From: Terriglobia bacterium
Lineage (GTDB): Bacteria > Acidobacteriota > Terriglobia > 20CM-2-55-15
Assembly: GCA_965198225.1 (NCBI GenBank)
Contig: CBDAOY010000009.1
Location: 384,001 to 448,000, forward strand
Reading direction: 5' to 3'
DNA: 64,000 nucleotides
This document shows positions 1 to 21,662 of this stretch, in pieces (the stretch's first letter is position 1; every line of letters starts with the position of its first letter). The translations under genes and the position numbers were made by a program. The notes under the pieces are model-generated. The model did no database searches. It saw nothing but the letters and a program-made list of their open reading frames with translations, and was not told the DNA's origin.

Positions 1-1
1 G

Positions 2-769
2 AGCGGGTGGGTCGCGGCCAACAACCAGGCCCTGCGCAACCTGCCGCCGTTCCCGGATTTCAGGAACTTCCACGATCCGAAGCCGCGGTTTGAGATCTCG
101 AGCATCGCCCCGATGAACCATCGCGGCATCGTCGTCGGGTCCCTGGCACTGTACCGGGAAGCGAAGGAGAACTTTTCCGACCTGGAATTTCGGCACCTGG
201 AGATTATTGCCGCGCAGGCCGCGGTCGCCTTGAATCGGGCTCGCGAACAAGAGGGCACCGAATCCGCGCTCTTCGACGAGCTCACCGAACTGCCGAACGG
301 CTACCAGATGTACCTGATGTTCGATCAGGTCGCCACAGATGCGCTACGCTATGAATACCCGTTGGCGCTGATGGCCTTCCGGTTGGACGAGTTCGCGGAG
401 ATCAAGCGACGTTATGGACATCTCAGCACAGCCGAAGTCGTGAGGTTCATCTCGCGCTATCTGAAGGACGAAGTCCGGGATACGGACATTCTCGTGCGTT
501 ATGCGGACGACCAGTTCCTGACGCTGAACCCCAAAATGAGCCGGGATCAATCGGAGGTTCTAAAGTCCAGAATCCAGAGCGAGCTGGACCGGCACAAGTT
601 CATGATCCGCCACGGGATCGAACTGGCGCCAAGGGTCTCGATCGGCATCGCCGAGTTCCCAGAGGAAGCCACAAAGCTCGAGGACCTGCTTTCCATCGCC
701 GAATGGCGCCTCACGGAAGACGAGCGACTCCGGTCGATGGCTCGCCGGACACTGTCTTTCCCCTCCTGA
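2..769 (+). CDS. GAF + degenerate GGDEF domain protein (5'-partial)
   Basis: The frame is open from base 2 (SGWVAANNQALRN..., GAF-like). It continues into DELTELPN and RDTDILVRYADDQF (GGDEF replaced by ADDQF, RxxD I-site kept), then VSIGIAEFP. Confidence 0.8.
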   Translation, partial: SGWVAANNQALRNLPPFPDFRNFHDPKPRFEISSIAPMNHRGIVVGSLALYREAKENFSDLEFRHLEIIAAQAAVALNRAREQEGTESALFDELTELPNGYQMYLMFDQVATDALRYEYPLALMAFRLDEFAEIKRRYGHLSTAEVVRFISRYLKDEVRDTDILVRYADDQFLTLNPKMSRDQSEVLKSRIQSELDRHKFMIRHGIELAPRVSIGIAEFPEEATKLEDLLSIAEWRLTEDERLRSMARRTLSFPS

Positions 770-880
770 CTTTCTCTTTGTCCGACAAAAGTCGCGTTTT
801 TTGCGTTCCTTGTTCCGCCAAAGCGCGATAAATTGTCGCGGCTCTCGTTCTAACAATCTCCAGATGCTGAATGACAGCTC

Positions 881-895
881 TGGCACCGGCAGTGC
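881..895 (+). promoter_or_regulatory. Putative sigma54 -24/-12 promoter
   Basis: TGGCAC-CGGCA-GTGC gives GG-N10-GC spacing. It is followed by GGAGGA (909-914) and the TTG start at 928. Confidence 0.45.
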
Positions 896-927
896 TGGTG
901 ATCTGACGGGAGGAAGGCCCTCAATCA

Positions 928-3900
928 TTGCAGCGTTTCCTGACAGATCGCTTCGAAGTTCGCCGAATCCTCCGCCGCTCGAAGCACGTGACGTCGTTTG
1001 TGGGACACGACCGTTGGTGGGGACGGGACGATGTCTTTGTGAAGTGCATCCGAAGTCGAGCGTGCTGGATCGACCCGGCTTTCCCGGAATCACTGGCTCG
1101 CTACCGCGGCCTGGTTCACCCGCTGATCGGGAACATCTACGACGCCGGGTTTTCCCCAAGGAAAGACTTCTACTACGTACGACACCACGCGGCTCAAGCG
1201 GAGAGTCCCGCGAGTCCCGCACAACTCCTGCGAGTAGCTCCCCAGATAGTCGCCGCCTGCGCCTTGCTTCATTCAAGAGGTCTGGTCCACGGTCGGATCA
1301 AGCCAAACAACATCATCGTCCACGATAGCACCTGTCACGTTGTCGACGGTGGACTCCCACCTCTGCACGAATGGAATCTCGATGTGGACGACGTCCACTA
1401 CCGCGCACCGGAGCTTCTGGAAGGGGGTGAACCAACTATCGAGACCGATCTCTACTCACTCGGTGCGGTACTGTACAGGGCTTATTCAGGTCGCACTCTA
1501 TTTGAAGATCCCAGCATCGAACTTCTCAGAAACAAGTACGCCAACGCGAAACCTGAGCCTCTGAACAATGTCTGCGATGCGCCGAAAGCCGTCAGCGATC
1601 TCGTCCTGGGCCTGGTCGGCCGGAACTCGAAGGCAAGAAAAGAGGTGTTCACGGATGTCCTGAAGCTCTTCCCTGCTAGCTCAAGCCGCGTGATGCACGC
1701 GCCGTTTGTGGGTCGAGAAAGAGAGTTGCAGGAAGCGATAGAGCTTCTAGGTTCGAGTGGTCGCGACATACGGCTGCTGGTTGTCGAGGGAGAGGCTGGT
1801 GCCGGAAAGACAAGGCTGGTCGAAGAGCTCGGGTTTCGTCGCGCCCTCGCTTCCAGCGACTTCTCAGTCGGCCGGAGCTTTGAGAGGGAAAACCGTCAGT
1901 TCGAGCCGCTTCTTCAGGTGTTCTCCCAGAAGTTGGACCGGCGCGATGTGCTTTTCAAACGCTGGGAGGCGGCCGAGTTTCCACGCTTTCGTCACTCTCT
2001 GGATCACCTTCTGTCAGAAACGCTGGATGAGGGGCTGCCGCACGGGCTGTCTGCCGGCAAACTCGTGACAGACCTCGTGGGAGTGACGATTTCTCTAACC
2101 AATCAGGCACGGCGCAGCACTGTTGTTCTCGAAGACGCGCACTGGGCCGACGAAGGCACGCTCAAAGTACTCGAACAAATCCTTCTTCGCGGGGAGGAGG
2201 CGAACCTCTGCTTTCTCCTGACCGCCCGGTCGGGTGAGATTCAGGGACCGCTGCGCCGGTTGCTGAGCGGTCCGGCACCTTCCGGAATCACAATCCATCG
2301 AATCTCGCTCGAACCGCTGACTGCGACCGCGGCTCTCAGCCTTGCTGAGAGTCTTTGCGGCAATGCGGGGCACGCCGCACGGATCGTGGAAAAGGCCTGC
2401 GGAAACCCACTGTTCCTGGAAGAGTACTCCCGACACCGAAACATCCGAGGCAAGAGTCAGCCATCCAGCGTAAAGGATGTGCTCGTCGACAAGGCGACGA
2501 GTCTGACCAAAGGGCTCAGAGGTGCTATCGAGGCACTTTCGCTCTTTCCGAAACCCATGTCCTTCGACGAAGCAAAGGGCGCGATCGCGTCTCTGGTACC
2601 TCGGCCCGATGGGCAACTGGAAGAGCTGCTCGAAGCAGGCATTGTCGTGTCGGACGGTTCAAACATCCGGTTTCGTCACGACGGGATTCGGGAAGCGGTG
2701 TACAAGAGACTAGCGCTCAAGCGCCGCCGACAATTTCACCAAACCGTATGCGACCGGCTCCTTCAAGAGCCATCCGACGACGAGGCCATTGGATATCACG
2801 CCGAACGGGCCGGCTTACCCAAGAAGGCCGCCCGGGCCTACATCGCTGCCGCGGACCGCAATCGTGAGCATCACAATTACCAGACTGCAGCCGAGCTCTT
2901 TTCCTTCGCGCGCAGGTGTTTTGTCCGCTCTAGGCAGAAGGTGCCTCATTCGTTGGACCTGTCGTACAGCCGCTGCTTGATGTCGATCGGAAGAAAGTAC
3001 CACGCGCGGAAGCTTCTCCATCGAATCGTAGCGACTAGCACCGATCACGGCGTTCGGGCCCTGGCATACGGCTATCTCGCCGGCTCTTCGCCGGACGATC
3101 CCGAATCGTGTCTGGCATTCTTTCGCTCACAGCTAGCGGAACTCCCGAAGGGATCGGACAAACTCTCCTCGGTACACTTGGGCCTGTCTCAGGCTCACGC
3201 TGTCGCCGGGCACGCCCGGGAAGCCACGAAGTGCCTTTCGAGCGCCGAACGACTATTCGCAGGGAATTCCGATGCGACGAGGCTTCGGTCATTTCTTGCC
3301 ATAAAGGGGGTCGTTCTCATTGCGCTTTGCGAGTACCGGCAAGCGTTATCCGTATTGCCCAGCCAGGCTGTCGGAGACCATCAACCTCGCGTTCTAAACA
3401 ATAGAGCCGTATGCATGGAGCATCTCGGCCAGTTGGATGCAGCCTGTGCGTACCAACGCGAAGCACTCGACCTGTCTCGCCGCCAAGGCATGCTGGAAGG
3501 GGAACTGCTGTCACTTGCTAACATCGGCGCTTTCGAAACCAAGAGGGGCAACTTCGAACTAGCTGCGAGCAGTTTCCGGGAGGCTGAAAGTTTCTGTGCT
3601 TCCATGAACCTTTATCGAGACGGGGATCGGAAAAATCTGCCGCTCCCCGCTGCCGATCAGGCAGCCCTCCGCATGGAAATGGGACAATACGCCGAGGCGC
3701 GGAAGCTGTTCGTGTCGGCTTTCAGATGGCTCAAACGGGACCGCTCGAGCCAGAGCGCGATCTGGGCCGCCCTGAAACGGAGCGAGTTCTACACGCGAAC
3801 TGGTGAGATGCAGCTTGCGGCACCGGTCATCGATTCCGTTAGCGCCAGCGAGCTCTTTGACACCGACTTCCTGAAGGTGGAGCGGGCCCTGATCGAGGCC

Positions 3901-5973
3901 ATTTTACTCAGGCTCCCTGAAATAGACCGGCTTCGGCTTCTCGACGCCGCCCTGCCACTCACCGCGTCTCTCGGTACGCTCTACCAGCGCTGTCGCGTCC
4001 TGATCGAGTCGGCGGCGCTTCTAATCGACGCGGCGCGTGACGAAGAGGCCCGGACGCGCGTCGCGGAGGCTCTGAAGCTGGCTCGGCGACACGGATACAG
4101 ACCGCTCGAAGCAAGTGCTTTGCTAATCAAGGGTTCAGTAACACGGAAGAAGCGCGCCCGGCATGAATACCTGCTACAGGCTTACCGGATCGCGTCCGAT
4201 ACCCCGCTGCCGGAAATCGCAGCCGAAAGCGCGCTTCGGATCGGAGAGCATCAGCTTGAATTGAATAATCTTTTCAACGCGCGTGAATACCTGTCGCGAA
4301 GCGTCTCTTTGACCAAGTCGCTGGCGGGCGGATTGCCGGCTCGGGCTCGAAATCGTTACCTTCTCGTTCCATGGAGGCAGCAAGCGATGAAACTACTGGC
4401 CAGCGTCGAGAATCAGCTACCTGCTCCCGGACGTCCAACCCCGATAAAGGACCCTCAGGATCGCCCGCTCTTCAAAGTGGCTTACGAAACAACGATGTCT
4501 CTCGGCGCTGCCAAGGGGGTCGAAGAGTACGTTCGTGCCTTGAACGGCGGGATCAAACGGGCGCTCAAGTGCAACGTCGCGTTCATGCTAACCGCCCGAG
4601 ACAAGATCGAGTTTCACGCTCTGGAAGCCCCGCCTGACGACGGCCTATCCAGAACGCTTTCCAAACTGTACGACAAGGTTCAGGACGGTCCTTTCTTCGG
4701 TCGAAGGGAAAATGTTCAAGAACGGGGTTCCGACAGAAGCGGCACAATGGCGTGGATTCCGCTGACAGCAGCCGGCTCCCGACTCGGAGGTCTGTATGTC
4801 AACATCGGAAAGAGGAGATTCAGCGAAGCAGAAATGGAGTTTCTTACGATGATCGGAATCATCGCGGCGAATGCGCTTGCCTCAATTCTGGCGTCTGACC
4901 ACCTGCCTCGCCAAAAGCGTCGCAAAAGATTCCATTACAAAGATATTGTTGGGGTTTCACGGGAAATCGAAGAAGTATGCGCCCAGATCGAGATTGCCGC
5001 CGGCAATCCTGCCACCGTGCTCATCGAAGGTGAGAGCGGAACGGGCAAGGAACTGGTAGCCCGGGCTATCCATGACCACAGCGCGCGGCGCGCGGGGCCG
5101 ATGGTGACTGTCGATTGTGGTTCGATCCCGGAAACGCTGATCGAGAGTGAGATGTTTGGAAGTCGACGGGGATCATTCACCGGAGCCACGGCGGACCGTC
5201 GGGGCCTGATTGAATCTGCCCACAGGGGAACGCTGTTCCTCGACGAAATCGCGAATACCAGCCCCGCCCTGCAGGCCAAACTTCTTCGAGTGCTGCAGGA
5301 GAAGGAGGTACGACGGCTCGGAGAAACCAAGGGCCGGGCCGTCGACATCCGTCTTTTGGCCGCGACCAACGCAAACCTCGAAAGGCTGGCTGAACAAGGT
5401 CAATTCCGCCAGGACTTGTATTTTCGGTTGAAAGTCCTGTACATCCAGATCCCTCCCCTCCGCGAGCGAAGGAAAGACATTCCTGAAATCGCACGCGCTT
5501 TTCTCCGGCAGCTAACCCAGGCCAACGCTACGAACAAGCGCTTCGGTCGCGGGATTCTGGACCGCATTGCGGCCGGACACTACCCTGGTAATGTTCGGGA
5601 ACTGCAGAACCTCGTGGAGCGCGCCTACTTCTCGGCAACCGCCGGCGACACGATCAAGAAGGTATCCATCGAAGTTGTTCCGGCTCGGCGCAAGGACTCA
5701 AATGAAGTCCAAGCCTGGTTCAAGGACCTGACGGAAGGACGCAAGGACTTCTGGGTCGACATCCACGCCCGCTACAAGCAACGCGACATTTCTCGCGAAC
5801 AGGTCATTGCGTTGATGGGCCTCGGCTTGAAGGAGACGCGCGGATCTTATAAGTCTGTGGGTGAACTGTTCCATGTCCAGGAGAGTGACTATCGACGCTT
5901 CATGGATTTCCTCCGCCGCAACAAGTGTCAGCCCGATTTCAGACCGTATCGAAGGTTAGAAGGCCCACGCTAG
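928..5973 (+). CDS. Multidomain sigma54-dependent activator: Ser/Thr pseudokinase - STAND/AAA NTPase - TPR - GAF-like - sigma54 AAA+ - C-terminal helical domain
   Basis: Kinase-fold motifs: HGRIKPNN, YRAPELL, DLYSLG. NTPase: GEAGAGKT, VVLEDAHWAD, GNPLFLEE. TPR-like helical repeats follow. bEBP motifs: GESGTGKELVARAIH, ESEMFG, GSFTGA, GTLFLDEI, FRQDLYFRL, PGNVRELQN. Confidence 0.85.
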   Translation: MQRFLTDRFEVRRILRRSKHVTSFVGHDRWWGRDDVFVKCIRSRACWIDPAFPESLARYRGLVHPLIGNIYDAGFSPRKDFYYVRHHAAQAESPASPAQLLRVAPQIVAACALLHSRGLVHGRIKPNNIIVHDSTCHVVDGGLPPLHEWNLDVDDVHYRAPELLEGGEPTIETDLYSLGAVLYRAYSGRTLFEDPSIELLRNKYANAKPEPLNNVCDAPKAVSDLVLGLVGRNSKARKEVFTDVLKLFPASSSRVMHAPFVGRERELQEAIELLGSSGRDIRLLVVEGEAGAGKTRLVEELGFRRALASSDFSVGRSFERENRQFEPLLQVFSQKLDRRDVLFKRWEAAEFPRFRHSLDHLLSETLDEGLPHGLSAGKLVTDLVGVTISLTNQARRSTVVLEDAHWADEGTLKVLEQILLRGEEANLCFLLTARSGEIQGPLRRLLSGPAPSGITIHRISLEPLTATAALSLAESLCGNAGHAARIVEKACGNPLFLEEYSRHRNIRGKSQPSSVKDVLVDKATSLTKGLRGAIEALSLFPKPMSFDEAKGAIASLVPRPDGQLEELLEAGIVVSDGSNIRFRHDGIREAVYKRLALKRRRQFHQTVCDRLLQEPSDDEAIGYHAERAGLPKKAARAYIAAADRNREHHNYQTAAELFSFARRCFVRSRQKVPHSLDLSYSRCLMSIGRKYHARKLLHRIVATSTDHGVRALAYGYLAGSSPDDPESCLAFFRSQLAELPKGSDKLSSVHLGLSQAHAVAGHAREATKCLSSAERLFAGNSDATRLRSFLAIKGVVLIALCEYRQALSVLPSQAVGDHQPRVLNNRAVCMEHLGQLDAACAYQREALDLSRRQGMLEGELLSLANIGAFETKRGNFELAASSFREAESFCASMNLYRDGDRKNLPLPAADQAALRMEMGQYAEARKLFVSAFRWLKRDRSSQSAIWAALKRSEFYTRTGEMQLAAPVIDSVSASELFDTDFLKVERALIEAILLRLPEIDRLRLLDAALPLTASLGTLYQRCRVLIESAALLIDAARDEEARTRVAEALKLARRHGYRPLEASALLIKGSVTRKKRARHEYLLQAYRIASDTPLPEIAAESALRIGEHQLELNNLFNAREYLSRSVSLTKSLAGGLPARARNRYLLVPWRQQAMKLLASVENQLPAPGRPTPIKDPQDRPLFKVAYETTMSLGAAKGVEEYVRALNGGIKRALKCNVAFMLTARDKIEFHALEAPPDDGLSRTLSKLYDKVQDGPFFGRRENVQERGSDRSGTMAWIPLTAAGSRLGGLYVNIGKRRFSEAEMEFLTMIGIIAANALASILASDHLPRQKRRKRFHYKDIVGVSREIEEVCAQIEIAAGNPATVLIEGESGTGKELVARAIHDHSARRAGPMVTVDCGSIPETLIESEMFGSRRGSFTGATADRRGLIESAHRGTLFLDEIANTSPALQAKLLRVLQEKEVRRLGETKGRAVDIRLLAATNANLERLAEQGQFRQDLYFRLKVLYIQIPPLRERRKDIPEIARAFLRQLTQANATNKRFGRGILDRIAAGHYPGNVRELQNLVERAYFSATAGDTIKKVSIEVVPARRKDSNEVQAWFKDLTEGRKDFWVDIHARYKQRDISREQVIALMGLGLKETRGSYKSVGELFHVQESDYRRFMDFLRRNKCQPDFRPYRRLEGPR

Positions 5974-6246
5974 TGTCCTGAGTTAGAAGTTCGTTCACTA
6001 TCTCCGACGGATGTTGCCACTCGCGGGGTGGACGTTGAACCGATCGACAACGGGTGTATGCACGCGGCCGGCTCGGCCCTCACAACCGGCAACTTCCATC
6101 GGCCCTGCGGGTTCGGGCGGAACGGCGCTGTCTTTGGAGTCGCTCCTCCTCGCAATGAATGAGCATTGGCTCGTCGTCGCTCCCCCCAAATCCAGCGTCG
6201 TTGCGCTCCGAAATATAGCAAACGTACTTCTAACTCAGGACACTAG
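5970..6246. mobile_element. MITE-like non-autonomous element (277 bp)
   Basis: Perfect 21-bp terminal inverted repeat CTAGTGTCCTGAGTTAGAAGT (5970-5990 / 6226-6246), CTAG at both ends, no convincing coding content. Confidence 0.85.
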
Positions 6247-6329
6247 GTGCCGAGCAGGCCTGTTTGAGTCGCCGATGATGAATGTAGGGCCGCACGAGAT
6301 AGATCCAACCCCCGTGCTACCATTCGGCC

Positions 6330-6998
6330 ATGGAACCGGTGGTAAAGGTCTCCGGCGTCCGAAAGGTTTACGAGGGGGAAGGCGAACCGGTTGTTGCGTT
6401 GAACGACGTCTCGCTCGAGGTCGACTCCGGCGAATTCGTTGCCCTGATGGGCCCCAGCGGCTGCGGCAAATCGACCCTCCTGCACATCATCGGCGCGATG
6501 GATCGTCCGTCGGCGGGCAAGGCCTGGATCCAAGGCGCGCCCATACACAACCTACCCGAAGAAGAGCTGACCGGAATCCGTCGCACACGAGTGGGCTTCG
6601 TGTTTCAGTTCTTCTACCTTCTGCCCACGCTCACGCTTGAAGAAAACGTCGCCTTGCCCCTGTTGCTCGCGAACGGGCGGCATGTGGATTCGGACCGGGT
6701 TCAGGCCCTGATTGAAACCGTCGGCCTGACCGACCGGCGTTCAGCAACCCCGAACCAGCTCTCGGGTGGGGAAATGCAACGGGCTGCGCTGGCAAGAGCA
6801 GTCGTCCACCGGCCGCCGCTCGTCGTGGCGGACGAACCGACCGGCAATCTGGATTCCGATAACGGTCGCGTGATCCTCGAGCTGCTCCGGAAGTTGTCGA
6901 GAGAGGGCACGACCGTCGTCATGGCCACCCACAGCGATGCGGCTGCCGCGTACGCGGCGCGTGTGTTACGCCTGAGGGATGGGAAACTGGTCGAATGA
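6330..6998 (+). CDS. ABC transporter ATP-binding protein (LolD/MacB type)
   Basis: [30 protein letters not shown]. Confidence 0.92.
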   Translation: MEPVVKVSGVRKVYEGEGEPVVALNDVSLEVDSGEFVALMGPSGCGKSTLLHIIGAMDRPSAGKAWIQGAPIHNLPEEELTGIRRTRVGFVFQFFYLLPTLTLEENVALPLLLANGRHVDSDRVQALIETVGLTDRRSATPNQLSGGEMQRAALARAVVHRPPLVVADEPTGNLDSDNGRVILELLRKLSREGTTVVMATHSDAAAAYAARVLRLRDGKLVE

Positions 6999-9598
6999 CG
7001 CGCTTTGCCCGGCTCTTCCACCGCTACATCCTCCGCGATCTCGCGCGCAATCCCATCCGGACGCTCCTCACCCTGACCGGGGTGGCGCTGGGCATTGCGG
7101 TCGTCGTCGGGGTGCACGTGGCCAACGACCGGGCGATCTCCTCGTTCAACGACTCGCTGCGGATCCTGAGCGGCCAGGCCGACCTTCAGATTTCTGCCAA
7201 CGGGCTGCAACTGGACGAGGAGCTGATCGGCGAGCTCTCCTGGGTCTGGGACGTGGGCGCGATGACGGCGATCGTCGAAGGCCGGGTCGACCTGGACGCC
7301 TCGCCCAACCCGATCGAGCGGCAATCACTCCGGATCTTCGGTATCGATCTGCTATCCGACGCTCCGTTCCGAACCTACACACTCACCGAAGGCGACGACC
7401 TCGGCCTGGACATCACCCGTGAGCAGTTCATCGACTTGCTGGTTGAACCCGACACCATCATCATCCCCTCACTCCTGGCCGAAGAGTTCGCCCTCGGCGT
7501 CGGCGACACGATTCAATTCCTTGTTTCGAACCGCTGGCGGGACTTTCGGGTCGGCGCCATCCTGCAGGACGAAGGCGTGGCCGAAGCCTTCGGCGGGCGG
7601 ATCGTTTTCATGGACATCGCCGGAGCGCAGACGGCTCTGAACAAGATCGGTTGGATCGACCGGATCGAAGTCCTCCTGGACGACCCGGCGCTGGCGGATG
7701 CGGTCGAAGAGCGGATCCGAGTCCAACTCCCTGCATCGGTCATCGTCTACCGGCCCGAAGAGGCCGCCGCCTACAACGAAAAGATGGTCCGCGCCTTCCG
7801 CTACAACCTGACCGCGCTCTCCTACATCGCCCTCGTCGTCGGCATGATCCTCGTCTACAACACGCTGAACATCGCCGTCGTTCGGAGGCGGGCCGAAATC
7901 GGCGCGCTCCGCACGTTAGGAACTTCGCGGACGACCATCAAATGGATGTTCCTGATCGAAGCGACCGCCTTCGGTGTGATCGGCGCCGCGCTCGGGGTCT
8001 GGGGGGGGGAGTTCCTCGCCGCTGCAGCCGGTGCTCTGGTGTCGCAGACCATCTCCGGGCTTTACACCGGCGTCGCCGTCATCCCGTCACTGACACGCTC
8101 CGACCCTATCTTCTACATCGAGATGCTGTTGCTCGGCGGTGTCCTGGCGGCAATCTCGGGAACGGGGCCCGCGCTGCGGGCCACCCAGGTCTCGCCGGTG
8201 GGCGCACTGCGCGAGAACGTCCTCGGCACTATTCGCGCAACGCGGCTGCGGGTTCAGGTCTTCGGCGGAATCGGTGCGCTGATCCTCGGTACCGTTCTCG
8301 CACTCGGTCCGCCGATCGAAGGTTTCCCGTTTCTCGGGTACGCATCGGGCGTGTCGTTCATCGCCGGCTTCGGACTGCTCTCACCCCTGCTCGCACGGAT
8401 GCTTCTAAAACTGATCCGGCGCCCGTTAACGACGGCGCTTCCGGCCGAAGGTCGCCTGGCCGTCCAGACGATCGAAGGTAGTCTCGGCCGGGTCGTCGTC
8501 GCGGTGATGTCGCTTGCGATCGCCGTAGCGATGCTGATCAGCGTGGCGATCATGGTCGCGAGCTTCCGCGACACGGTGATCGTCTGGATCGACCAGACCT
8601 TGAAGGGCGACCTCTACCTGCGTCCGGCCGCGTTCGGCAGCAACGGGGGGCGGAACGTCCTGGAGAGCGAGACCCTGCACGTGCTCGAAACCATGCCGGC
8701 GATCGAAGCCATCGACCGGTTCCGCTCGATGACGATCGACTACGGAGGCTTCCCTGCCTTCCTGGCTGCCGGAGAGTTTGGCACCGTCGCTTCTCACAGC
8801 AACCTCCTCTTCATGAACGGCCGCCAGACGGCGGCGGTCGCCAAACGGTTGATCGGGGCCGACCGCGTGGTCGTTTCCGAGCCCTTCGCCGTACGGCACG
8901 GGGTTCGTGCGGGCGATCGGATCATGCTCCCGACCCCGGCAGGGATGGAGCCGTTCGAGGTCGAAGCCCTCTTTTATGACTACTCATCAGAGGGCGGGCT
9001 CGTAGTAATGGATCGTGGCACGTACCTCACGAAATTCGAGGACCCCGACGTCAGCAACGTTGCGCTCTACCTGAAACCCGAGGCTGACCCGATCACGACC
9101 CGAGCCGAGATCGCGGCCGCGCTCCCCGACACTCAGCTTCGGATCGCAACGAACGGCGAGCTGCGGGGGCAGGTGTTGCGCGTCTTCGACCAGACGTTCC
9201 AGATCACCTACGCCCTGGAGGTCATCGCGATGGCCGTAGCGGTGCTGGGAATCGCCAATACGCTAGCCGCGCTCATCATCGAGCGCCGTCCCGAAATCGC
9301 CATGTTGCGATTCATCGGGGCCGCACGGTCACAAATTCGCCGGGTCGTCGTCCTGGAATCGGGCCTGATCGGCGTGCTCGGCGGCGCGATCGGCCTGGTC
9401 CTGGGCATCCTTCTGTCGCTGCTCCTGATCTATGTCATCAACTTCCAGTCGTTCGGCTGGACCATCCAGTTCACAATGCCGCTGGGCTTTCTGGCGCAAG
9501 CGCTTGGGGTGGTGCTGGTCGCCACCGTCGCGGCCGGGCTCTACCCGGCATCACTGGCACTGAAGATGGATCCGATCAAGGGGATCCGGGCGGAGTAG
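6995..9598 (+). CDS. ABC transporter permease with duplicated MacB-PCD/FtsX modules
   Basis: Two FtsX-type motifs (RRAEIGALRTLG, ERRPEIAMLRFIGA), multiple TM segments, ATGA overlap with the ATPase gene. Confidence 0.88.
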   Translation: MTRFARLFHRYILRDLARNPIRTLLTLTGVALGIAVVVGVHVANDRAISSFNDSLRILSGQADLQISANGLQLDEELIGELSWVWDVGAMTAIVEGRVDLDASPNPIERQSLRIFGIDLLSDAPFRTYTLTEGDDLGLDITREQFIDLLVEPDTIIIPSLLAEEFALGVGDTIQFLVSNRWRDFRVGAILQDEGVAEAFGGRIVFMDIAGAQTALNKIGWIDRIEVLLDDPALADAVEERIRVQLPASVIVYRPEEAAAYNEKMVRAFRYNLTALSYIALVVGMILVYNTLNIAVVRRRAEIGALRTLGTSRTTIKWMFLIEATAFGVIGAALGVWGGEFLAAAAGALVSQTISGLYTGVAVIPSLTRSDPIFYIEMLLLGGVLAAISGTGPALRATQVSPVGALRENVLGTIRATRLRVQVFGGIGALILGTVLALGPPIEGFPFLGYASGVSFIAGFGLLSPLLARMLLKLIRRPLTTALPAEGRLAVQTIEGSLGRVVVAVMSLAIAVAMLISVAIMVASFRDTVIVWIDQTLKGDLYLRPAAFGSNGGRNVLESETLHVLETMPAIEAIDRFRSMTIDYGGFPAFLAAGEFGTVASHSNLLFMNGRQTAAVAKRLIGADRVVVSEPFAVRHGVRAGDRIMLPTPAGMEPFEVEALFYDYSSEGGLVVMDRGTYLTKFEDPDVSNVALYLKPEADPITTRAEIAAALPDTQLRIATNGELRGQVLRVFDQTFQITYALEVIAMAVAVLGIANTLAALIIERRPEIAMLRFIGAARSQIRRVVVLESGLIGVLGGAIGLVLGILLSLLLIYVINFQSFGWTIQFTMPLGFLAQALGVVLVATVAAGLYPASLALKMDPIKGIRAE

Positions 9599-9600
9599 GC

Positions 9601-10710
9601 ATGCATACGCTGGCACACATGGCGGTGCTGTTGGTTTCGGTGGCACTGGTCCAGGCGCCCGAACCGAACCGAATTCGCGAACCTGAGTATCGACTGGCCC
9701 TTCCCGGCTACGAATACGCGTTCCCGCGCGACCACGGATCGCATCCCGACTACAAACTGGAGTGGTGGTACTACACCGGACACCTCGACGGCGACGACGG
9801 CCGACGCTTCGGATACGAGCTGACCTTTTTCCGCATAGGGATGGACCGGCGCGCTGAAAGCGCATCCCGCTGGAACATCGACGACCTGCACGTGGCCCAC
9901 TTTGCATTGAGCGAGATCGACGTCGACCGCTTCCGTTTCTATGAACGATTGAACCGCGCGGGCCCCGGTATTGCCTGGGCCCGGGAAGGAACGCTCGACG
10001 TGGTGAATGCCGGCTGGTCGGTCCGACTCGACGGCGATCGAATGAGACTCCGCGCCTACGCCGACGGCATTCTCCTGGAGCTGGAACTCACGTCTGCCAA
10101 AGATCCGGTCGTCCACGGCATCGAGGGGGTCAGCCAGAAGGCCGACGGCGTCGGGCAGGCGTCGCACTACTACTCGATGACGCGGATGGACACCCGGGGC
10201 CTGCTGTCCTTCGACGGGCAACCGGTCAACGTGGCCGGAGAGAGCTGGATGGACCACGAGTTCGGGACCAACCAGCTCGCGCCCGAACAAATTGGATGGG
10301 ACTGGTTCAGTGTCCAGCTCGACAACGGCGAAGAGCTGATGCTCTACCGGCTACGGCACCGGGATGGTTCGATCAATCGGAACTCGAGCGGAACCGTCGT
10401 TGCGGCCGGCGGCGAGACCCAACATATTGCGCTGGACCAGTTCACCGTGACGGCACTGGGTGAATGGGCGAGTCCGAAGAGCGAAGCGGTTTATGCAATC
10501 GACTGGCGATTGGAGATCCCGGGCTTCGACGCCGACCTTCGCGTCATTCCGTTGATGAGAGATCAGGAGCTGGTCACGACGCGGTCGACCGGCATCGCCT
10601 ACTGGGAGGGCGCCGTCCGTATCGAAGGGACGTGGAAGGGACAGCCGATTACCGGTCGAGGGTACGTCGAGTTGACAGGGTATTCGGAACGGTACCGGCC
10701 CAGCGTCTGA
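9601..10710 (+). CDS. Secreted lipocalin-like (AttH/CrtC-like) protein
   Basis: Signal peptide, FPRDHGSHPDYKLEWWYYTG, WMDHEF, GWDWFS, YWEGAV, GYVELTGY. This family is typically found after this ABC pair. Confidence 0.85.
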   Translation: MHTLAHMAVLLVSVALVQAPEPNRIREPEYRLALPGYEYAFPRDHGSHPDYKLEWWYYTGHLDGDDGRRFGYELTFFRIGMDRRAESASRWNIDDLHVAHFALSEIDVDRFRFYERLNRAGPGIAWAREGTLDVVNAGWSVRLDGDRMRLRAYADGILLELELTSAKDPVVHGIEGVSQKADGVGQASHYYSMTRMDTRGLLSFDGQPVNVAGESWMDHEFGTNQLAPEQIGWDWFSVQLDNGEELMLYRLRHRDGSINRNSSGTVVAAGGETQHIALDQFTVTALGEWASPKSEAVYAIDWRLEIPGFDADLRVIPLMRDQELVTTRSTGIAYWEGAVRIEGTWKGQPITGRGYVELTGYSERYRPSV

Positions 10711-11839: not shown

Positions 11840-13730
11840 ATGCGTCAACTTATCCAGTTTCTTGTCATCGCCGGTCTGGTCGTCGGGTTCGGGCTGCCAA
11901 CCCCGTCATTCGCACAGGCAGACCACGTCGGCGGAGCCGCCCGGACGTCGGAGTCGGTTGTTGTGGACGGCCTCCTCGATCCCGAAGAGTGGGCGGGCGC
12001 GGGGCGGGTCGATTCCTTCATGCAGTTCGAACCTCAACGTGGAGATCCCGCCTTCGAGCCGACCGAAGCCTACGTCCTTTACGACGACGTTTACGTTTAC
12101 TTTGCGTTCCGGTGCTTTGATTCTCAACCCGAGAGCATCACTGCACAGCTCACGCAGAGGGACGCCGATCTGTTGACCGACGATGCGATCATCGTCGTGA
12201 TCGACACGTTTCACGACCGGCGTTCCGCCTACTTCTTCGCAACCAACCTTCTCGGAACTCAGTTCGACGGGCGCATCACCGACAACGGCCGCGTCGTCGA
12301 GAACACCTGGGATGCAGCCTGGACTTCGGCCGCCTCCCGATTCGACGAGGGCTGGACGGCGGAAGTCGCGATCCCGCTCTCCACCCTTCGTTTCCGTGCG
12401 GGCGCGGACACGACCTGGGGACTCAATTTCGGCCGAACGTCCCGTCGGTTGCTGGAGACGAGCTTCTGGGCGGGTCCGCTCGAAGACCGCTACCGTATCT
12501 CGCAGTACGGCACACTCGAAGGGCTGGACCTGGAGGGGGCTCAACGCAAGTTCGAGGTCATTCCCTACGTGCTGGGCAACTTCCAGGAAGGCGGAGAGTC
12601 CGATGTGGCGGCCGGCATGGACCTCCGCTACTCGGTGACGCCCGAAAACGTCGTGACGATGACTTTGAACCCCGACTTCGCAACCATCGAAGCCGACCAG
12701 GAACAAGTCAACCTCACCCGGTTCGAGCTCGATCTGCCGGAGAAACGACAGTTCTTCCTGGAAGGATCGGAGCAGTACCGCCAACGGATCCAGACTTTTT
12801 ACTCGCGCCGGATCGCCGACATCCGGGTCGGCGCCAAGATGCTGGGTCGGGGCGGCAGTTGGCAGTATTCAATGCTCACGGCGCAAACCGACCCTGTCGA
12901 AGTCGAATCCCGTAGTTCGGTGCGCGAGTCCGCCAACTATTCGGTCTTCCGCCTGCAGCCCGACGTGCTCGGGTCGTCGACGCTGGCGCTGATGGCATCC
13001 AACCGGTCGCTCGCCGGGGTCAACGGCGGCTCGGTCGGACTGGACACGACACTCTTCTTCACCGATACCATCGGGTTTACCGGACAGTTGATCCGCTCGC
13101 ACGGGCCGGCTCATGGCGGGAAGTGGGCCTGGTTCGTGCGGCCCGCGCGGGACACTGCGACCAGTCACGTGCACTTTCGCTACACCCACCTGGGCGACGC
13201 CTTCGGCGACGACGTCAACGCAATCGGGTTCATCCGGGACGATGATCGCCGAGAGATGGACAGCGCCTTCACCCGGCGGTTCTTTCCCCGATCCGGACCC
13301 GTCGAGCGCATCGAATACGATTCCAACTACAATATCTACTGGAGTCAGAAGGATCTCCTCCGGAGCTGGCGAATCGATGAATCGCTCGATGTGGACCTGC
13401 GTAGTCGATGGTCCCTCGGCGTATCCCATTAACGAGCTGTCGCTGGAATACGAGCTGGCGCGTCTCTGGCTGGATCCGGATCCCGAAACCTCCTCCACAG
13501 CCATTCATGTTCTCCGGGTGACCCAGAGTTTCAACCGGGACCTTTTCATGAAGCTGTTCTTTCAGACCAATTCCGTCATCGATCGGAAGAACCTGCAGGC
13601 CGTGTTCGTCTGGCGTTACAAGCCTCCGTTCGGCACCATCCAGTTCGCGTACCAGCGCGGGACGGCGGCGTTCGGCGAACGTTCCGAGCAGGGGAACACG
13701 TTGTTCGTAAAGTTCTCTTACGTGCTGTAG
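11840..13730 (+). pseudogene. CBM9-like/DUF5916 exported protein, broken near 13430
   Basis: VDGLLDPEEW, IDTFHDRR, GWTAEVAIP, LNPDFATIEAD, LPEKRQFF. Stop at 13432; a beta-rich C-terminus ending LFVKFSYVL continues in another frame to 13730. ATG at 11840 follows GGAG. Confidence 0.7.
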
Positions 13731-18897: not shown

Positions 18898-20145
18898 TCA
18901 GTGGATCGTTTCGATCTTCTTCTTCAAATAATCCATCAGCAGGTACTGGCCAAGAGTGTCGGTCGAGGTGAAGTACGCCTTGCCCCTGGAGATCTCCGTG
19001 ACCTTTTTCACGAAGTCGACCAGGTAGTGATCAGTGGCAAGCATGAAGGTGTTGATCAGTATTCCCGACTTCCGGCAGATCGCGACTTCCTTGAAAGTCT
19101 CTTCCAGGATGACCGGATCGAGGCCAAAAGCGTTCTTGTAGATCCGGCCGTTCGGCAGTGTCATCGCGGAGGGTTTGCCGTCGGTGATCATGATGATCTG
19201 GCGCATGTCCTTTTTTTCGGCCATCAGGAGCCGCCGGGCGAGGCGAAGTCCCTCTCGGGTGTTGGTGTGGTAGGGACCGACGACGACCCTCGCGAGTTGC
19301 TTGAACGGAATCTCTTCAGCCGAGTCGTGGAAGAGGACCATGCGCAGTGAATCGCCCGGGTACTGCGTTCGTATCAGGTGGGCGAGCGCGAGCGCCACGC
19401 GCTTGGCGGGAGTAAAACGATCCTCAGCGTAGAGGATCATGCTGTGCGACGTGTCCAGCATGACGACGGTCGCGCAGGAGCTTTCGTAGTCGGCCTGACG
19501 TACCATCAGGTCGTCGGGTTCGAGATTGATCGGCACGCCCAGGCCTTCGCGCGACACGGCTCGCATCAGGGTCTCGTTGATGTCGAGGTTCAACGTGTCC
19601 CCGAACTCGTAGTGCTTCGACGAATGGAACGCTTCGACTCCGGTCGACAGGTCGGAAGTCTCGTGTCGGCCGAAACTGCTCTTTCCCAATGTACCCATCA
19701 GGTGGCGCAGCGCGCGGAACCCGAGGAAGTCGACGGATTTATCGGTGATCTCAAACTGCGCGCTACCCGTCTGCTCGCCTTCGATGCCGGACGCTTCCCC
19801 CTCGGGTGAGGACATGCCTTCCGGCATCTGTGTGGACTGAAGCCAGCCCTCATCGATCATCCGCCGGATCAGTTGGTCGAGCATCTGATCCATCTCGCGC
19901 GCTTCGCCCTGGGTTGGATCATCGAGCCACTGTTCCAGCAACTCCCGCGGGATCCGCTCCATTTCGGCGAGCCGCTCCATGATTGCGCGGCGAAGCGCGT
20001 CCATGTCGCGCGGATTGGTTACATCATGGAAGCCGTACTGAAACCCGCTCTGCAGCAGGAAGTCCGACAGCGAGTCGAGCAGGTCCTCGATGCTGAGTCC
20101 GTCCAGCGGTGACGGAACGTATTTGGTGTATGTAATCTTCGCCAT
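18898..20145 (-). CDS. VWA domain-containing protein
   Basis: MIDAS DTSHS, HTNT, ITDGKPS. Located downstream of a chelatase-like AAA ATPase. Confidence 0.85.
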
Positions 20146-20150
20146 TGGAA

Positions 20151-20181
20151 TGTGCGGTCACAGACCGCACCTACAGTTCAA
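20151..20181 (-). repeat. GTAG-type REP-like palindrome, copy 1
   Basis: Minus strand TGTAG-GTGCGGTC-tgt-GACCGCAC. 30/31 identical to 31030-31060. Confidence 0.75.
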
Positions 20182-21662
20182 TTGAGCGGTTTCTTGAAGC
20201 GGTTCGGATCGATGGAGTAGTCCCGGTACACGTCCTGCGCCGACTTTCTCTCCGCCGCCGAATAGCCGCGTTCCTCGGTTCGCGTAATCTTGTCGTGAGC
20301 GCAGAGGCCTTCGAGTATGAACTCTGCGGCGGCGACGCGGGCTCCAGGGGAGGAGTCGGCATCGATACCGAGTGGGGATAGCCGGTCCATCAGGCCGTCG
20401 ACTTCGGCAAAACGCTCGAGGGTCTGCGCGATCGGTTCGACATCGGACACCTTCAGCGTGCCACCTGCGTCGAACCACTCTGTAACCGGCTTGAAGTCGG
20501 TGCGTGGAAAGTGGGTTCGGAAGACCATCTGCACCGCCTGGCGGATCAGGTCGCGAGCGACGATGTCCGCACCCTTCAACTCGCCTTCGTATTCCAGTTC
20601 CAGCTTCCCGGTTATCGATGGGATCGCTGCGTAGATATCCACAATGCGGGCAATCGTTTCCTCTTCGGCCAGCATAACGCACCGGCGCTCCGCATTGCTG
20701 GCCGCGTTTTCGACGCACGAAATCGGTAACCGCTGGCTGACGCCGGAACGTTTGTCGATCCGCTGGTCCGCGCGAGCCCTGAATGCGATCCCTTCGATGA
20801 CCTCCCGGATGAACTGGGGAATGGCAATTGCCCCCCGATCCCGGCCGGTCCAAGCCTCTTGCTCGGTGATAGCGACACCGTGTTCCAGATCGACGGGATA
20901 GTGCGTCTTGATCTCCGAGCCGATCCGGTCCTTCAGCGGTGTGACGATCTTTCCTCGCGCGGTGTAGTCCTCCGGGTTGGCTGAAAAAACCAGCGCAACG
21001 TCGAGCGGCAACCGGACCGGATAGCCTTTAATCTGGATGTCGCCCTCCTGCATGATGTTGAACAGTCCGACCTGAATTTTCCCGGCGAGGTCCGGCAGCT
21101 CGTTGATCGCAAAAATGCCGCGGTTTGCCCGCGGTAGTAGTCCGTAGTGAATCGTGAGTTCGCTGGCCAGTGCATGGCCCGCCTTCGCGGCCTTTATCGG
21201 ATCGATATCCCCGATCATGTCGGCAATCGTGACATCGGGTGTTGCAAGCTTCTCGACGTAGCGCTGATCCCGGGACCGGTAGGCGATCGGTGTCTGGTCA
21301 CCCATTTCCTTCACGAGCTCCCGGCATCGGCGGCATATCGGCATGAAGGGATCATCGTTGATCTCGCAGCCTTCGATGCAGGGAATCGCTTCATCCAGAA
21401 GGTCGGCAAGCTGGCGCAGGATGCGGCTCTTGGCCTGACCGCGCAGGCCCAGCAGAATCATGTTGTGTCGGGACAGAACAGCGTTGATCACTTGGGGAAC
21501 GACCGTGTCTTCAAATCCCATGATGCCTGGGAAGATCGTTTCGCGGCGCTCGAGCTTCCTGACGAGATTGACGCGCATCTCATCCTTGACAGTTCGCCCG
21601 CGGCAGCTGTCGTCGCCGAAGGGTGTTCTTCTCAGCTCTCCCAGGGTTGTTGCTTGCATCAT
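20178..21662 (-). CDS. Magnesium-chelatase-like AAA+ ATPase
   Basis: GLRGQAKSR, ATPDVTIADMIGDIDP, RANRGIFAINELPDL, SANPEDYT. Confidence 0.85.
   Translation of the reverse strand: MMQATTLGELRRTPFGDDSCRGRTVKDEMRVNLVRKLERRETIFPGIMGFEDTVVPQVINAVLSRHNMILLGLRGQAKSRILRQLADLLDEAIPCIEGCEINDDPFMPICRRCRELVKEMGDQTPIAYRSRDQRYVEKLATPDVTIADMIGDIDPIKAAKAGHALASELTIHYGLLPRANRGIFAINELPDLAGKIQVGLFNIMQEGDIQIKGYPVRLPLDVALVFSANPEDYTARGKIVTPLKDRIGSEIKTHYPVDLEHGVAITEQEAWTGRDRGAIAIPQFIREVIEGIAFRARADQRIDKRSGVSQRLPISCVENAASNAERRCVMLAEEETIARIVDIYAAIPSITGKLELEYEGELKGADIVARDLIRQAVQMVFRTHFPRTDFKPVTEWFDAGGTLKVSDVEPIAQTLERFAEVDGLMDRLSPLGIDADSSPGARVAAAEFILEGLCAHDKITRTEERGYSAAERKSAQDVYRDYSIDPNRFKKPLN

Follow-up and report, generated by a model that had tools for sequence, protein, structure and literature searches.

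A 64,000-nucleotide stretch of DNA from a Terriglobia bacterium (a soil-type member of the Acidobacteriota), referred to here as the window, carries at positions 928..5973 of the plus strand a gene for a 1681-residue protein (P0001). The genome analysed comprises 6.4 Mb in 9 contigs, and the window corresponds to G000:C9:384001-448000. With a probability that we put at roughly 60%, and judging from its sequence, the gene encodes a functional single-chain activator of sigma-54, that is, a bacterial enhancer-binding protein (bEBP), in which a MalT-type STAND (signal transduction ATPase with numerous domains) switch, and not a receiver domain, controls the AAA+ motor. The usual switches of sigma-54 activators are receiver, GAF, PAS or V4R domains, and the usual outputs of STAND switches are LuxR-type or SARP-type DNA binders, or death and immune effectors. 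Using Pfam and motif searches, the protein was divided into a kinase fold, a STAND NTPase, a TPR region, a GAF-like segment, a sigma-54 AAA+ domain and a C-terminus that is not of the Fis type, which is the domain order described in the original prediction, made from the sequence alone.

The gene and its two NTPases

The gene consists of one uninterrupted frame of 1681 codons (5046 nt) and starts at TTG. A Shine-Dalgarno sequence, GGGAGGAAGG, is located upstream of the start codon at 908-917, and the N-terminal MQRFLT is a start common to the homologues, at the same position as the start of the window protein. A Logan short-read contig from an independent run covered 1008-5999 with 0 differences, therefore the long frame is not an assembly artefact. 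Full-length relatives were found at 95%, 80% and 77% identity to the window protein, and a more distant full-length relative (L004) is 46% identical over residues 1-1677. An Rfam scan of 700-6400 produced no match.

The G+C content at third codon positions (GC3) had been described as less biased in this gene than in its neighbours. The gene does have a GC3 of 0.652 against 0.75-0.83 for five neighbouring genes, but this value is unremarkable genome-wide. Among 2453 open reading frames of at least 400 residues the mean GC3 was 0.718 with a standard deviation of 0.064, and 18% of the frames are at or below 0.652. Recent horizontal transfer was considered as the cause of the low GC3 and rejected, since a value at the 18th percentile lies within the range of the genome and gives no transfer signal.

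The sigma-54 interaction AAA+ domain and its lid occupy 4945..5667 on the plus strand (residues 1340-1580). Sigma54_activat (PF00158) matched residues 1340-1506 with E 2.5e-66 (223 bits against a cut-off of 20.2), and AAA_lid_14 (PF25601) matched residues 1512-1580. The Walker A (GESGTGKE) and Walker B (LFLDE) motifs are present, and invariant in the relatives. The original prediction drew attention to GSFTGA in place of GAFTGA. GSFTGA is indeed found at nt 5170-5187 (residues 1415-1420), and GS[FY]TGA is the rule in the clade (16/17 of P0001-P0019). It is no peculiarity, however: PMC4641369 lists GSFTGA among the GAFTGA variants compatible with activation, with examples from Desulfovibrio bEBPs whose targets have been mapped, and GSFTGA also occurs in PMC11999139. 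The closest solved motor is the AAA+ domain of FleQ, with 47-48% identity, E 1e-64 to 9e-66 and a target-normalised template-modelling score, TM(target), of 0.89-0.90. The genome encodes the sigma factor itself, rpoN (Sigma54_DBD, 185 bits, at G000:C5:233227-233697). Genome-wide, PF00158 generated 26 matches, including 17 full-length ones (E<=1e-53), and the window match is the only one in a frame longer than 600 residues.

The second NTPase, the STAND nucleotide-binding oligomerisation domain (NOD), is encoded at 1702..2847 on the plus strand (residues ~259-640). AAA_16 matched residues 259-429 with E 2.1e-19, its 71 bits exceeding the cut-off of 32.6. Walker A (GEAGAGKT), Walker B (VVLEDAHWAD) and the GxP-type motif GNPLFLEEY are invariant or nearly so in 14 relatives. 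An intact STAND-type NTPase had been claimed, and the AAA_16 score and conserved motifs agree with that. The accompanying description as a receptor like the NLRs (nucleotide-binding, leucine-rich-repeat proteins) fits only in the broad sense of STAND proteins in general. The NTPase belongs to the AAA_16/MalT type, the NACHT match is sub-threshold (17.6 bits against a cut-off of 26.7) and covers the P-loop alone, and no leucine-rich repeats were identified in the Pfam scan of the protein.

The NOD is followed by a helical-repeat region and a GAF-like segment. The TPR/helical-repeat sensor region, found as first described, extends over 2848..4422 on the plus strand (residues ~641-1165). Matches to TPR_12, TPR_2 and TPR_MalT cluster around residues 800-890; TPR_12 reached 38.5 bits against 30.1 when the region was isolated, and TPR_MalT was sub-threshold. 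The putative, divergent GAF domain lies at 4459..4902 on the same strand (residues ~1178-1325). Three Pfam GAF models fell below threshold there (E 0.017-0.07), GAF_3 with 16 against 27 bits and GAF with 15 against 22.4. Using hhalign, the GAF profile of the clade was aligned with the Pfam-positive GAF domain of its sister proteins, which share the same domain order and are described below, at 92.8% probability (E 3.9e-7, 142 columns). In an AlphaFold2 model of residues 1165-1681, with a mean predicted local distance difference test score (pLDDT) of 88.9, the GAF region is alpha/beta with pLDDT mostly >85. The segment is GAF-like, as had been predicted.

A conserved pseudokinase

The N-terminal kinase fold is encoded at 940..1662 on the plus strand (residues ~5-245). 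Pfam Pkinase matched only residues 90-237 (E 1.5e-13, 51-56 bits against a cut-off of 31.7). Using phmmer against PDB, StkP was aligned over residues 9-232 (E 6.7e-17) and PknB over residues 5-214; the kinase fold is complete and not a C-lobe alone. The catalytic loop reads HGRIKPNN (nt 1288-1311) against HRDLKPQN in StkP, with Arg123 at the position of the catalytic Asp. In the same alignment the Gly-rich loop is replaced and contains no GxGxxG. The losses of the Gly loop and of the catalytic Asp had both been predicted, as had retention of the VxK lysine and APE, which are seen here as the beta3 Lys K38 (VFVK) and an intact APE. The claim that DFG is absent was half right. The motif reads DGG (nt 1345-1353) and the Phe is gone, but the metal-binding Asp D140 is kept.

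The clade alignment comprised 14 full-length relatives with identities from 95% down to 32%. The catalytic Asp and the Gly loop are absent in 14/14, with R, H, A, G or Q at the Asp position. Seven residues are invariant across the 14 members: H121, G122, P126, N128, D140, P161 and E162. Of the 13 members that reach the beta3 position (P0002 has a truncated N-terminus), 11 have Lys there and 2 have Arg. In one sub-branch the kinase fold is further degraded (CGYL..., NLP) while the rest of the protein is kept. Mean pairwise identity within the clade is 0.37 for the pseudokinase, 0.31 for the NOD, 0.30 for the TPR region and 0.29 for the GAF domain, so that conservation of the pseudokinase is no lower than that of the other sensor parts.

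The state of the catalytic Asp was compared with the type of C-terminus in 83 proteins of at least 1400 residues, which were sorted by rough regular expressions. The Asp is absent in 35/36 proteins with the C-terminal module of the window protein, and kept in 24/24 proteins with an HTH_8-like tail (HTH, helix-turn-helix). The remaining 23 proteins had an unclassed C-terminus, with the Asp kept in 12 and absent in 11; some of them, such as P0008 and P0018, visibly carry the module. A tree was then inferred from the AAA+ domain only, using an IQ-TREE quick search with 76 rows and 240 columns. Six rows without the family layout and one row without the motif anchors were left out. The tree contains no kinase columns and is therefore independent of the state of the kinase. 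All 37/37 module-type, Asp-less cluster representatives form one clade with a support of 98 in the Shimodaira-Hasegawa-like approximate likelihood ratio test (SH-aLRT), and the Asp label needs 2 changes on the tree.

Absence of the Asp from all clade members, together with a single AAA+ clade, therefore identifies the kinase fold as a conserved pseudokinase and not as a decaying copy whose close homologues retain HRD and DFG. By its sequence it is an old, maintained domain that keeps nucleotide-binding and metal-binding residues. Loss of HRD (14/14), the GS[FY]TGA loop (16/17) and the C-terminal domain (clade-wide) are all conserved in the collected homologues.

The most likely role of the pseudokinase is predicted to be that of a nucleotide-binding allosteric or docking module; the original prediction had suggested a scaffold or sensor. 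Some proteins once called pseudokinases act by a non-canonical mechanism, and the fold could in principle still be an enzyme of that kind. Members of the nearer clade do retain the beta3 Lys, Lys125, Asn128, the DFG Asp and APE. Against this, R, H, A, G, Q or S stands in for the catalytic base without any one substitute having become fixed, no member has a Gly-rich loop, and the sub-branch mentioned above has decayed further without loss of the remaining protein. We consider a residual enzyme very improbable.

Weighing the activator: losses in relatives, the C-terminal module and the upstream region

Several observations count against a working STAND-gated activator of sigma-54, and they are brought together in this section with the evidence set against them. 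No chain in PDB matches the NOD/TPR region by sequence, and no RNA run is listed for the locus. A FleQ-type c-di-GMP (cyclic di-GMP) site in the motor was considered and rejected. According to PMC7288161, FleQ contacts c-di-GMP through R144, R185, N186, E330 and R334. The corresponding residues of the window protein are K, R, A, A and Q, so that 1/5 contacts is kept, a generally conserved Arg. In the alignment the FleQ R-switch LFRS, the post-Walker A R185/N186 and E330xxxR334 correspond to HYKD, R/A and A...Q.

Conservation of the gene among relatives is also incomplete. Only 20/60 related genomes contain a match to the activator (E<=1e-20), therefore the gene is dispensable. The ortholog in the same-genus genome G003 is cut in three pieces by two IS630-type insertions. 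Frames are split in G002 (L105, 368+1369 residues) and G015 (L106, 753+1005 residues), and the C-terminal module is out of frame in the G020 ortholog (L096). Between the activator and its same-genus copies identity is 44-52% in the sensor half, against 74-79% for the flanking genes.

These broken orthologs, the lack of a match in 40/60 relatives, the divergence of the sensor half and a GC3 below that of the neighbours could mean that the gene is a dispensable relic drifting to loss in this lineage, and that its intactness here is incidental. The state of the gene itself speaks against this view. The 5046-nt frame is open and identical in the independent short-read contig, the catalytic motifs of both NTPases are all intact, and full-length relatives exist at 95%, 80% and 77% identity. 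Some of the frame breaks in G002, G015 and G020 may be assembly errors, and the GC3 is within the normal range of the genome. STAND sensors are often fast-evolving. A relic is therefore improbable in our view; as far as sequence comparison can tell, the gene is dispensable and its sensor is fast-evolving, yet it is intact in this genome. The two insertions in G003 (L104:8528-9672 and 12307-13462) are identical, their first 300 nt being 100% alike, and each encodes a 361-residue transposase with DDE_3 and HTH domains.

The protein ends in a conserved helical module of ~75 residues at 5719..5952 on the plus strand (residues 1598-1675), in place of a Fis-type HTH. The clade pattern DFW...RDI...G.Y...DF..R..C..DFRPYR is invariant in this region. 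The module has no Pfam match even at E<=10, and HTH_8 was found in 0/40 module sequences at E<=1, as expected from the prediction that the C-terminus is not a standard Fis HTH. A phmmer search of 1.84 billion representatives identified the module in 797 clusters with a threshold of E<=1e-3 and in 205 with E<=1e-10. Of 24 carriers were scanned, and in every one of at least 345 residues the module directly follows Sigma54_activat and the lid. The N-terminal domains of these carriers are various or absent, and the short carriers are mostly fragments. In bEBPs of 345-884 residues the module is the sole region after the lid.

AlphaFold2, given a 40-row alignment, folded the module as a compact six-helix domain (pLDDT 92, predicted template-modelling score 0.82). 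Its net charge is +4 in the window protein and basic in 40/40 members (mean +5), and six columns are at least 88% Lys/Arg. Helices 3-5 are in the register of the Fis HTH according to hhalign. Atlas features, which we treat as leads only, placed unnamed clusters first (0.92), followed by HTH_8 (0.88) and HTH_50 (0.86).

Similarity to known DNA-binding folds is, on the other hand, faint. The hhalign match to HTH_8 tails without the lid is weak (probability 10.6%, P 0.003), and a Foldseek search of PDB with the module found nothing at E<=0.001. The best VIA-align scores among 48,161 chains were to generic helical proteins (Z 5.5), and the DNA-binding domain of NtrC4 reached Z 3.8.

A profile search of PDB yielded only faint EF-hand-like matches, at residues ~1650-1675 (~5875-5952), to EFCAB6 (E 0.08) and S100-A3 (E 0.19). 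This likeness is probably a helix-loop-helix resemblance alone; by eye, the usual acidic loop ligands are absent.

The module could then be a regulatory or protein-contact domain that does not bind DNA, with the activator working from solution or being recruited by another protein. Such a role would agree with the lack of any significant fold or profile match to an HTH and with the faintly EF-hand-like last third (E 0.08-0.2), and bEBPs without a DNA-binding domain exist. The module nevertheless occupies exactly the position of HTH_8 in the sister clade, it is net basic in all 40 members with six Lys/Arg-rich columns, and it contains a predicted helix-turn-helix stretch in Fis register. We judge a module that does not bind DNA unlikely. 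The sequence and the model point to a probable divergent, extended DNA-binding domain of the HTH type that is unclassified.

The sole curated model touching the module is NCBIfam NF038230, 'GPMC system transcriptional regulator', at its C-terminal end. It matched the C-terminal part of 35/40 module sequences with a best E of 2e-11, and the matched stretch lies at ~851-901 of the 935 profile positions. NF038230 shares the motor and the C-terminal module with the window protein, but membership was rejected, the whole protein scoring 170 bits against a cut-off of 1200. A literature search for 'GPMC system' found no paper. One other carrier of the module is encoded in the genome, at C5:286393-287379 (L003:1489-3045, minus strand). 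This short bEBP consists of AAA+, lid and module, with no recognisable sensor domain, and has a GAFTTA loop in place of GAFTGA.

Upstream of the gene, a candidate sigma-54 element of the -24/-12 type, TGGCACCGGCAGTGCT, lies at 881..896 on the plus strand, 32 nt before the start codon. When the intergenic regions of the window, G003, G002 and G020 are aligned, the GG and GC of the element (GG-N10-GC) share columns, and the spacer is variable. In G022, where the activator has no HD-GYP neighbour, TGGCATCTGAAATGCA is found at the same place. Alignment of five orthologous intergenic regions also identified two conserved blocks 40-95 nt upstream of the element, both candidate enhancer or regulator sites on the plus strand: AAAAGTCGCG(T)6GCG at 787-805 and the near-palindrome GCGCGATAAATTGTCGCG at 823-840.

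A strict scan (at least 10 of 12 matches) recovered the element in the window and in none of the orthologs. In the last 150 nt of the six nearer loci the best scores were 10, 8, 7, 7, 9 and 9 of 12, with shuffle fractions of 0.005, 0.059, 0.237, 0.178, 0.018 and 0.015 (2000 shuffles). The element is thus individually unusual in 3/6 nearer loci only, and it is absent from the six distant loci, where no match scoring at least 7 was found in the last 150 nt. Across the window the -24/-12 consensus occurs 34 times against 50 expected, which is below chance, and no match was found upstream of the HD-GYP gene in 11 loci. A genome search with the 787-840 blocks found no informative second copy and identified no target promoter; therefore no regulon or target operon is proposed. 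Transcription of the gene from a sigma-54 promoter, possibly with self-activation, is a fair candidate in the nearer subclade on this sequence evidence.

The HD-GYP neighbour, a possible mechanism and known systems

The first 769 nt of the window (1..769, plus strand) are the 3' part of a gene for an 829-residue protein (P0270; full gene G000:C9:382281-384769). The protein has a membrane N-terminus followed by HD-GYP, GAF and degenerate GGDEF domains (HD_5 2e-37, GAF_2, GGDEF 4e-25). The motif HHERWDGKGYP is intact, and RYADDQF replaces GGDEF.

An ortholog of this gene adjoins the activator in 10/11 distinct orthologous loci, L004 and L096 having been counted once because they gave identical matches. 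It lies upstream on the same strand in 9 loci and is convergent in 1, and in all 10 the HD-GYP domain is intact and GGDEF is degenerate. Among the 60 related genomes 14 contain an ortholog-level HD-GYP gene (at least 51% identity), and 13/14 also contain the activator. The exception is G007; conversely, G022 and G025 have an activator without the HD-GYP neighbour. A second family has distant versions of both genes, ~6 kb apart in 4/4 genomes. The related genomes in these counts are kin and not independent, and the pair persists down to ~30% activator identity. A complex prediction with pseudokinase residues 1-255 and the cytoplasmic part of the partner (255-829) returned no verdict (score 0.00) and counts neither for nor against an interaction.

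From this synteny, the membrane HD-GYP/GAF/degenerate-GGDEF protein is the likely upstream partner of the activator. The activator had been read as a one-protein system leading from sensing to transcription. A single STAND-gated polypeptide is still the most economical reading, but the activator is probably not self-contained, because the HD-GYP gene is its conserved neighbour.

The two genes may form a cyclic-dinucleotide relay, in which the HD-GYP neighbour sets or reports the local level of c-di-GMP or a related nucleotide and the activator senses it through the GAF domain, the pseudokinase pocket or the motor. This would constitute a membrane-to-sigma-54 unit, and it refines the STAND-gated reading without excluding it. 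The adjacency in 10/11 loci with constant domain states, the co-occurrence in 13/14 genomes and the ~6 kb spacing in the second family are as a relay would predict, and the closest solved motor, that of FleQ, belongs to a c-di-GMP-responsive bEBP. Only the generally conserved Arg remains of the FleQ contacts, however, each gene is found alone in some genomes (the activator in G022 and G025, the neighbour in G007), and synteny by itself is no proof of a shared ligand. We regard the relay as possible, if well short of an even chance.

Downstream of the activator, at 6330-10710, an operon-like row encodes an ABC ATPase, a MacB/FtsX-type permease (867 residues) and a CrtC-like double-lipocalin protein, which are kept beside the activator in five nearer loci only. 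Between them and the activator is a 278-bp element at 5970-6247 that resembles a miniature inverted-repeat transposable element. It starts at the activator stop codon and is bounded by terminal inverted repeats of 21 bp (5970-5990 and 6227-6247). Six full copies, 91-100% identical, are present in the genome together with ~35 copies of a 98-nt core, and no Rfam match was found. Contig depth rises from ~13x to 324-1107x over the element, and in run X7 one contig of low depth connects 5972 with 6251, an empty site. Further downstream (18898-21662, minus strand), a 494-residue protein with faint AAA_5/Sigma54_activat-like matches (E ~6e-4 to 9e-4) is encoded beside a VWA-domain protein; by sequence the two may be a MoxR/VWA-type pair.

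How a STAND-gated activator might work can be outlined from its parts. PMC4381067 and PMC6468293 describe STAND activation in MalT and PH0952 as inducer-driven multimerisation, with autoinhibition by the TPR sensor. At rest the NOD of the window protein would likewise hold ADP and be clamped by the TPR/helical sensor. The GAF domain would be a second brake on the motor, as in activators of the NifA/NorR type. A cytoplasmic ligand or partner would open the switch, and ATP-dependent multimerisation of the STAND domain would raise the local concentration of AAA+ domains and favour assembly of an active ring, whose GSFTGA loops would engage sigma-54 RNA polymerase. The pseudokinase would act as a nucleotide-binding allosteric or docking module, and the basic C-terminal helical module would tether the protein to DNA in place of the Fis HTH. 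The gene itself may be read from a sigma-54 promoter.

A fuller scheme joins both genes. A membrane cue would reach the dead kinase or the GAF domain, by a nucleotide second messenger or by contact with the degenerate GGDEF domain, and STAND multimerisation would then drive the sigma-54 motor. The C-terminal module would be an unclassified DNA-binding fold on enhancers, one of them in front of its own sigma-54-dependent gene, giving positive feedback. This scheme is speculative, and we consider it doubtful as a whole.

Several aspects of the gene are of wider interest. An oligomerisation switch wired to a motor that needs oligomerisation would be a natural test of one NTPase ring licensing another. 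Having been kept after one ancient loss of its catalytic base, the pseudokinase of the clade lends itself to study as a model of what kinases do without catalysis. The C-terminal module is widespread and has neither a Pfam model nor a solved relative, and a definition of it would help to annotate hundreds of sigma-54 regulators better. The HD-GYP pairing suggests that cyclic-dinucleotide turnover and sigma-54 control may be connected in Acidobacteriota, for which there is almost no regulatory genetics.

Literature searches found no paper describing a kinase-STAND-sigma-54 fusion or its function, and no functional study of the architecture. A table of kinase-sigma-54 fusions in myxobacteria may be found in Perez et al. 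2008. The bEBP and STAND kinds are already known. What is new in this analysis is the monophyletic pseudokinase subfamily, its unclassified C-terminal module and the conserved HD-GYP partner.

Known systems resemble the window protein in parts. With MalT, the LAL family, PH0952 and the STAND kinase PknK it shares an AAA_16-type NOD followed by a TPR/helical sensor, and PMC4381067 states that the MalT subfamily includes Ser/Thr kinases such as PknK. The output of the window protein is instead a bEBP AAA+ motor (a second NTPase) with a GAF domain, and not a LuxR or ArsR DNA-binding domain; its kinase is dead, and it has no sequence match to solved STAND chains. FleQ of Pseudomonas aeruginosa (5exp, 5exx, 6jdi) is alike in its AAA+ domain and differs in its N-terminal and C-terminal domains. 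FleQ is also a c-di-GMP-responsive bEBP, and the window gene adjoins a gene that resembles a c-di-GMP enzyme. Activators of the NifA, NorR and FhlA type correspond to the C-terminal third, which consists of GAF, motor and a short C-terminal domain. NifA and NorR are the best NCBIfam matches (residues 1279-1589), but the scores are far below the family cut-offs (305 against 529 bits for NifA). Compared with these activators the window protein has 1170 extra N-terminal residues, a very divergent GAF domain and a C-terminal domain that is not HTH_8.

The closest likeness is to the uncharacterised sister proteins of Acidobacteriota, Myxococcota and others with the order Pkinase-AAA_16-TPR-GAF-Sigma54_activat-HTH_8. 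They are ~1550-2000 residues long, have the same domain order and form sister groups on the AAA+ tree. In the sources they are named only 'sigma 54-interacting transcriptional regulator' (e.g. P0020-P0060). The sister proteins keep HGD or HRD, DFG or DLG, mostly the Gly loop, GAFTGA, a Pfam-recognisable GAF domain and the Fis-type HTH_8. In the window clade, by contrast, the catalytic Asp and the Gly loop are lost, the motor mostly carries GS[FY]TGA, and a different C-terminal module is present.

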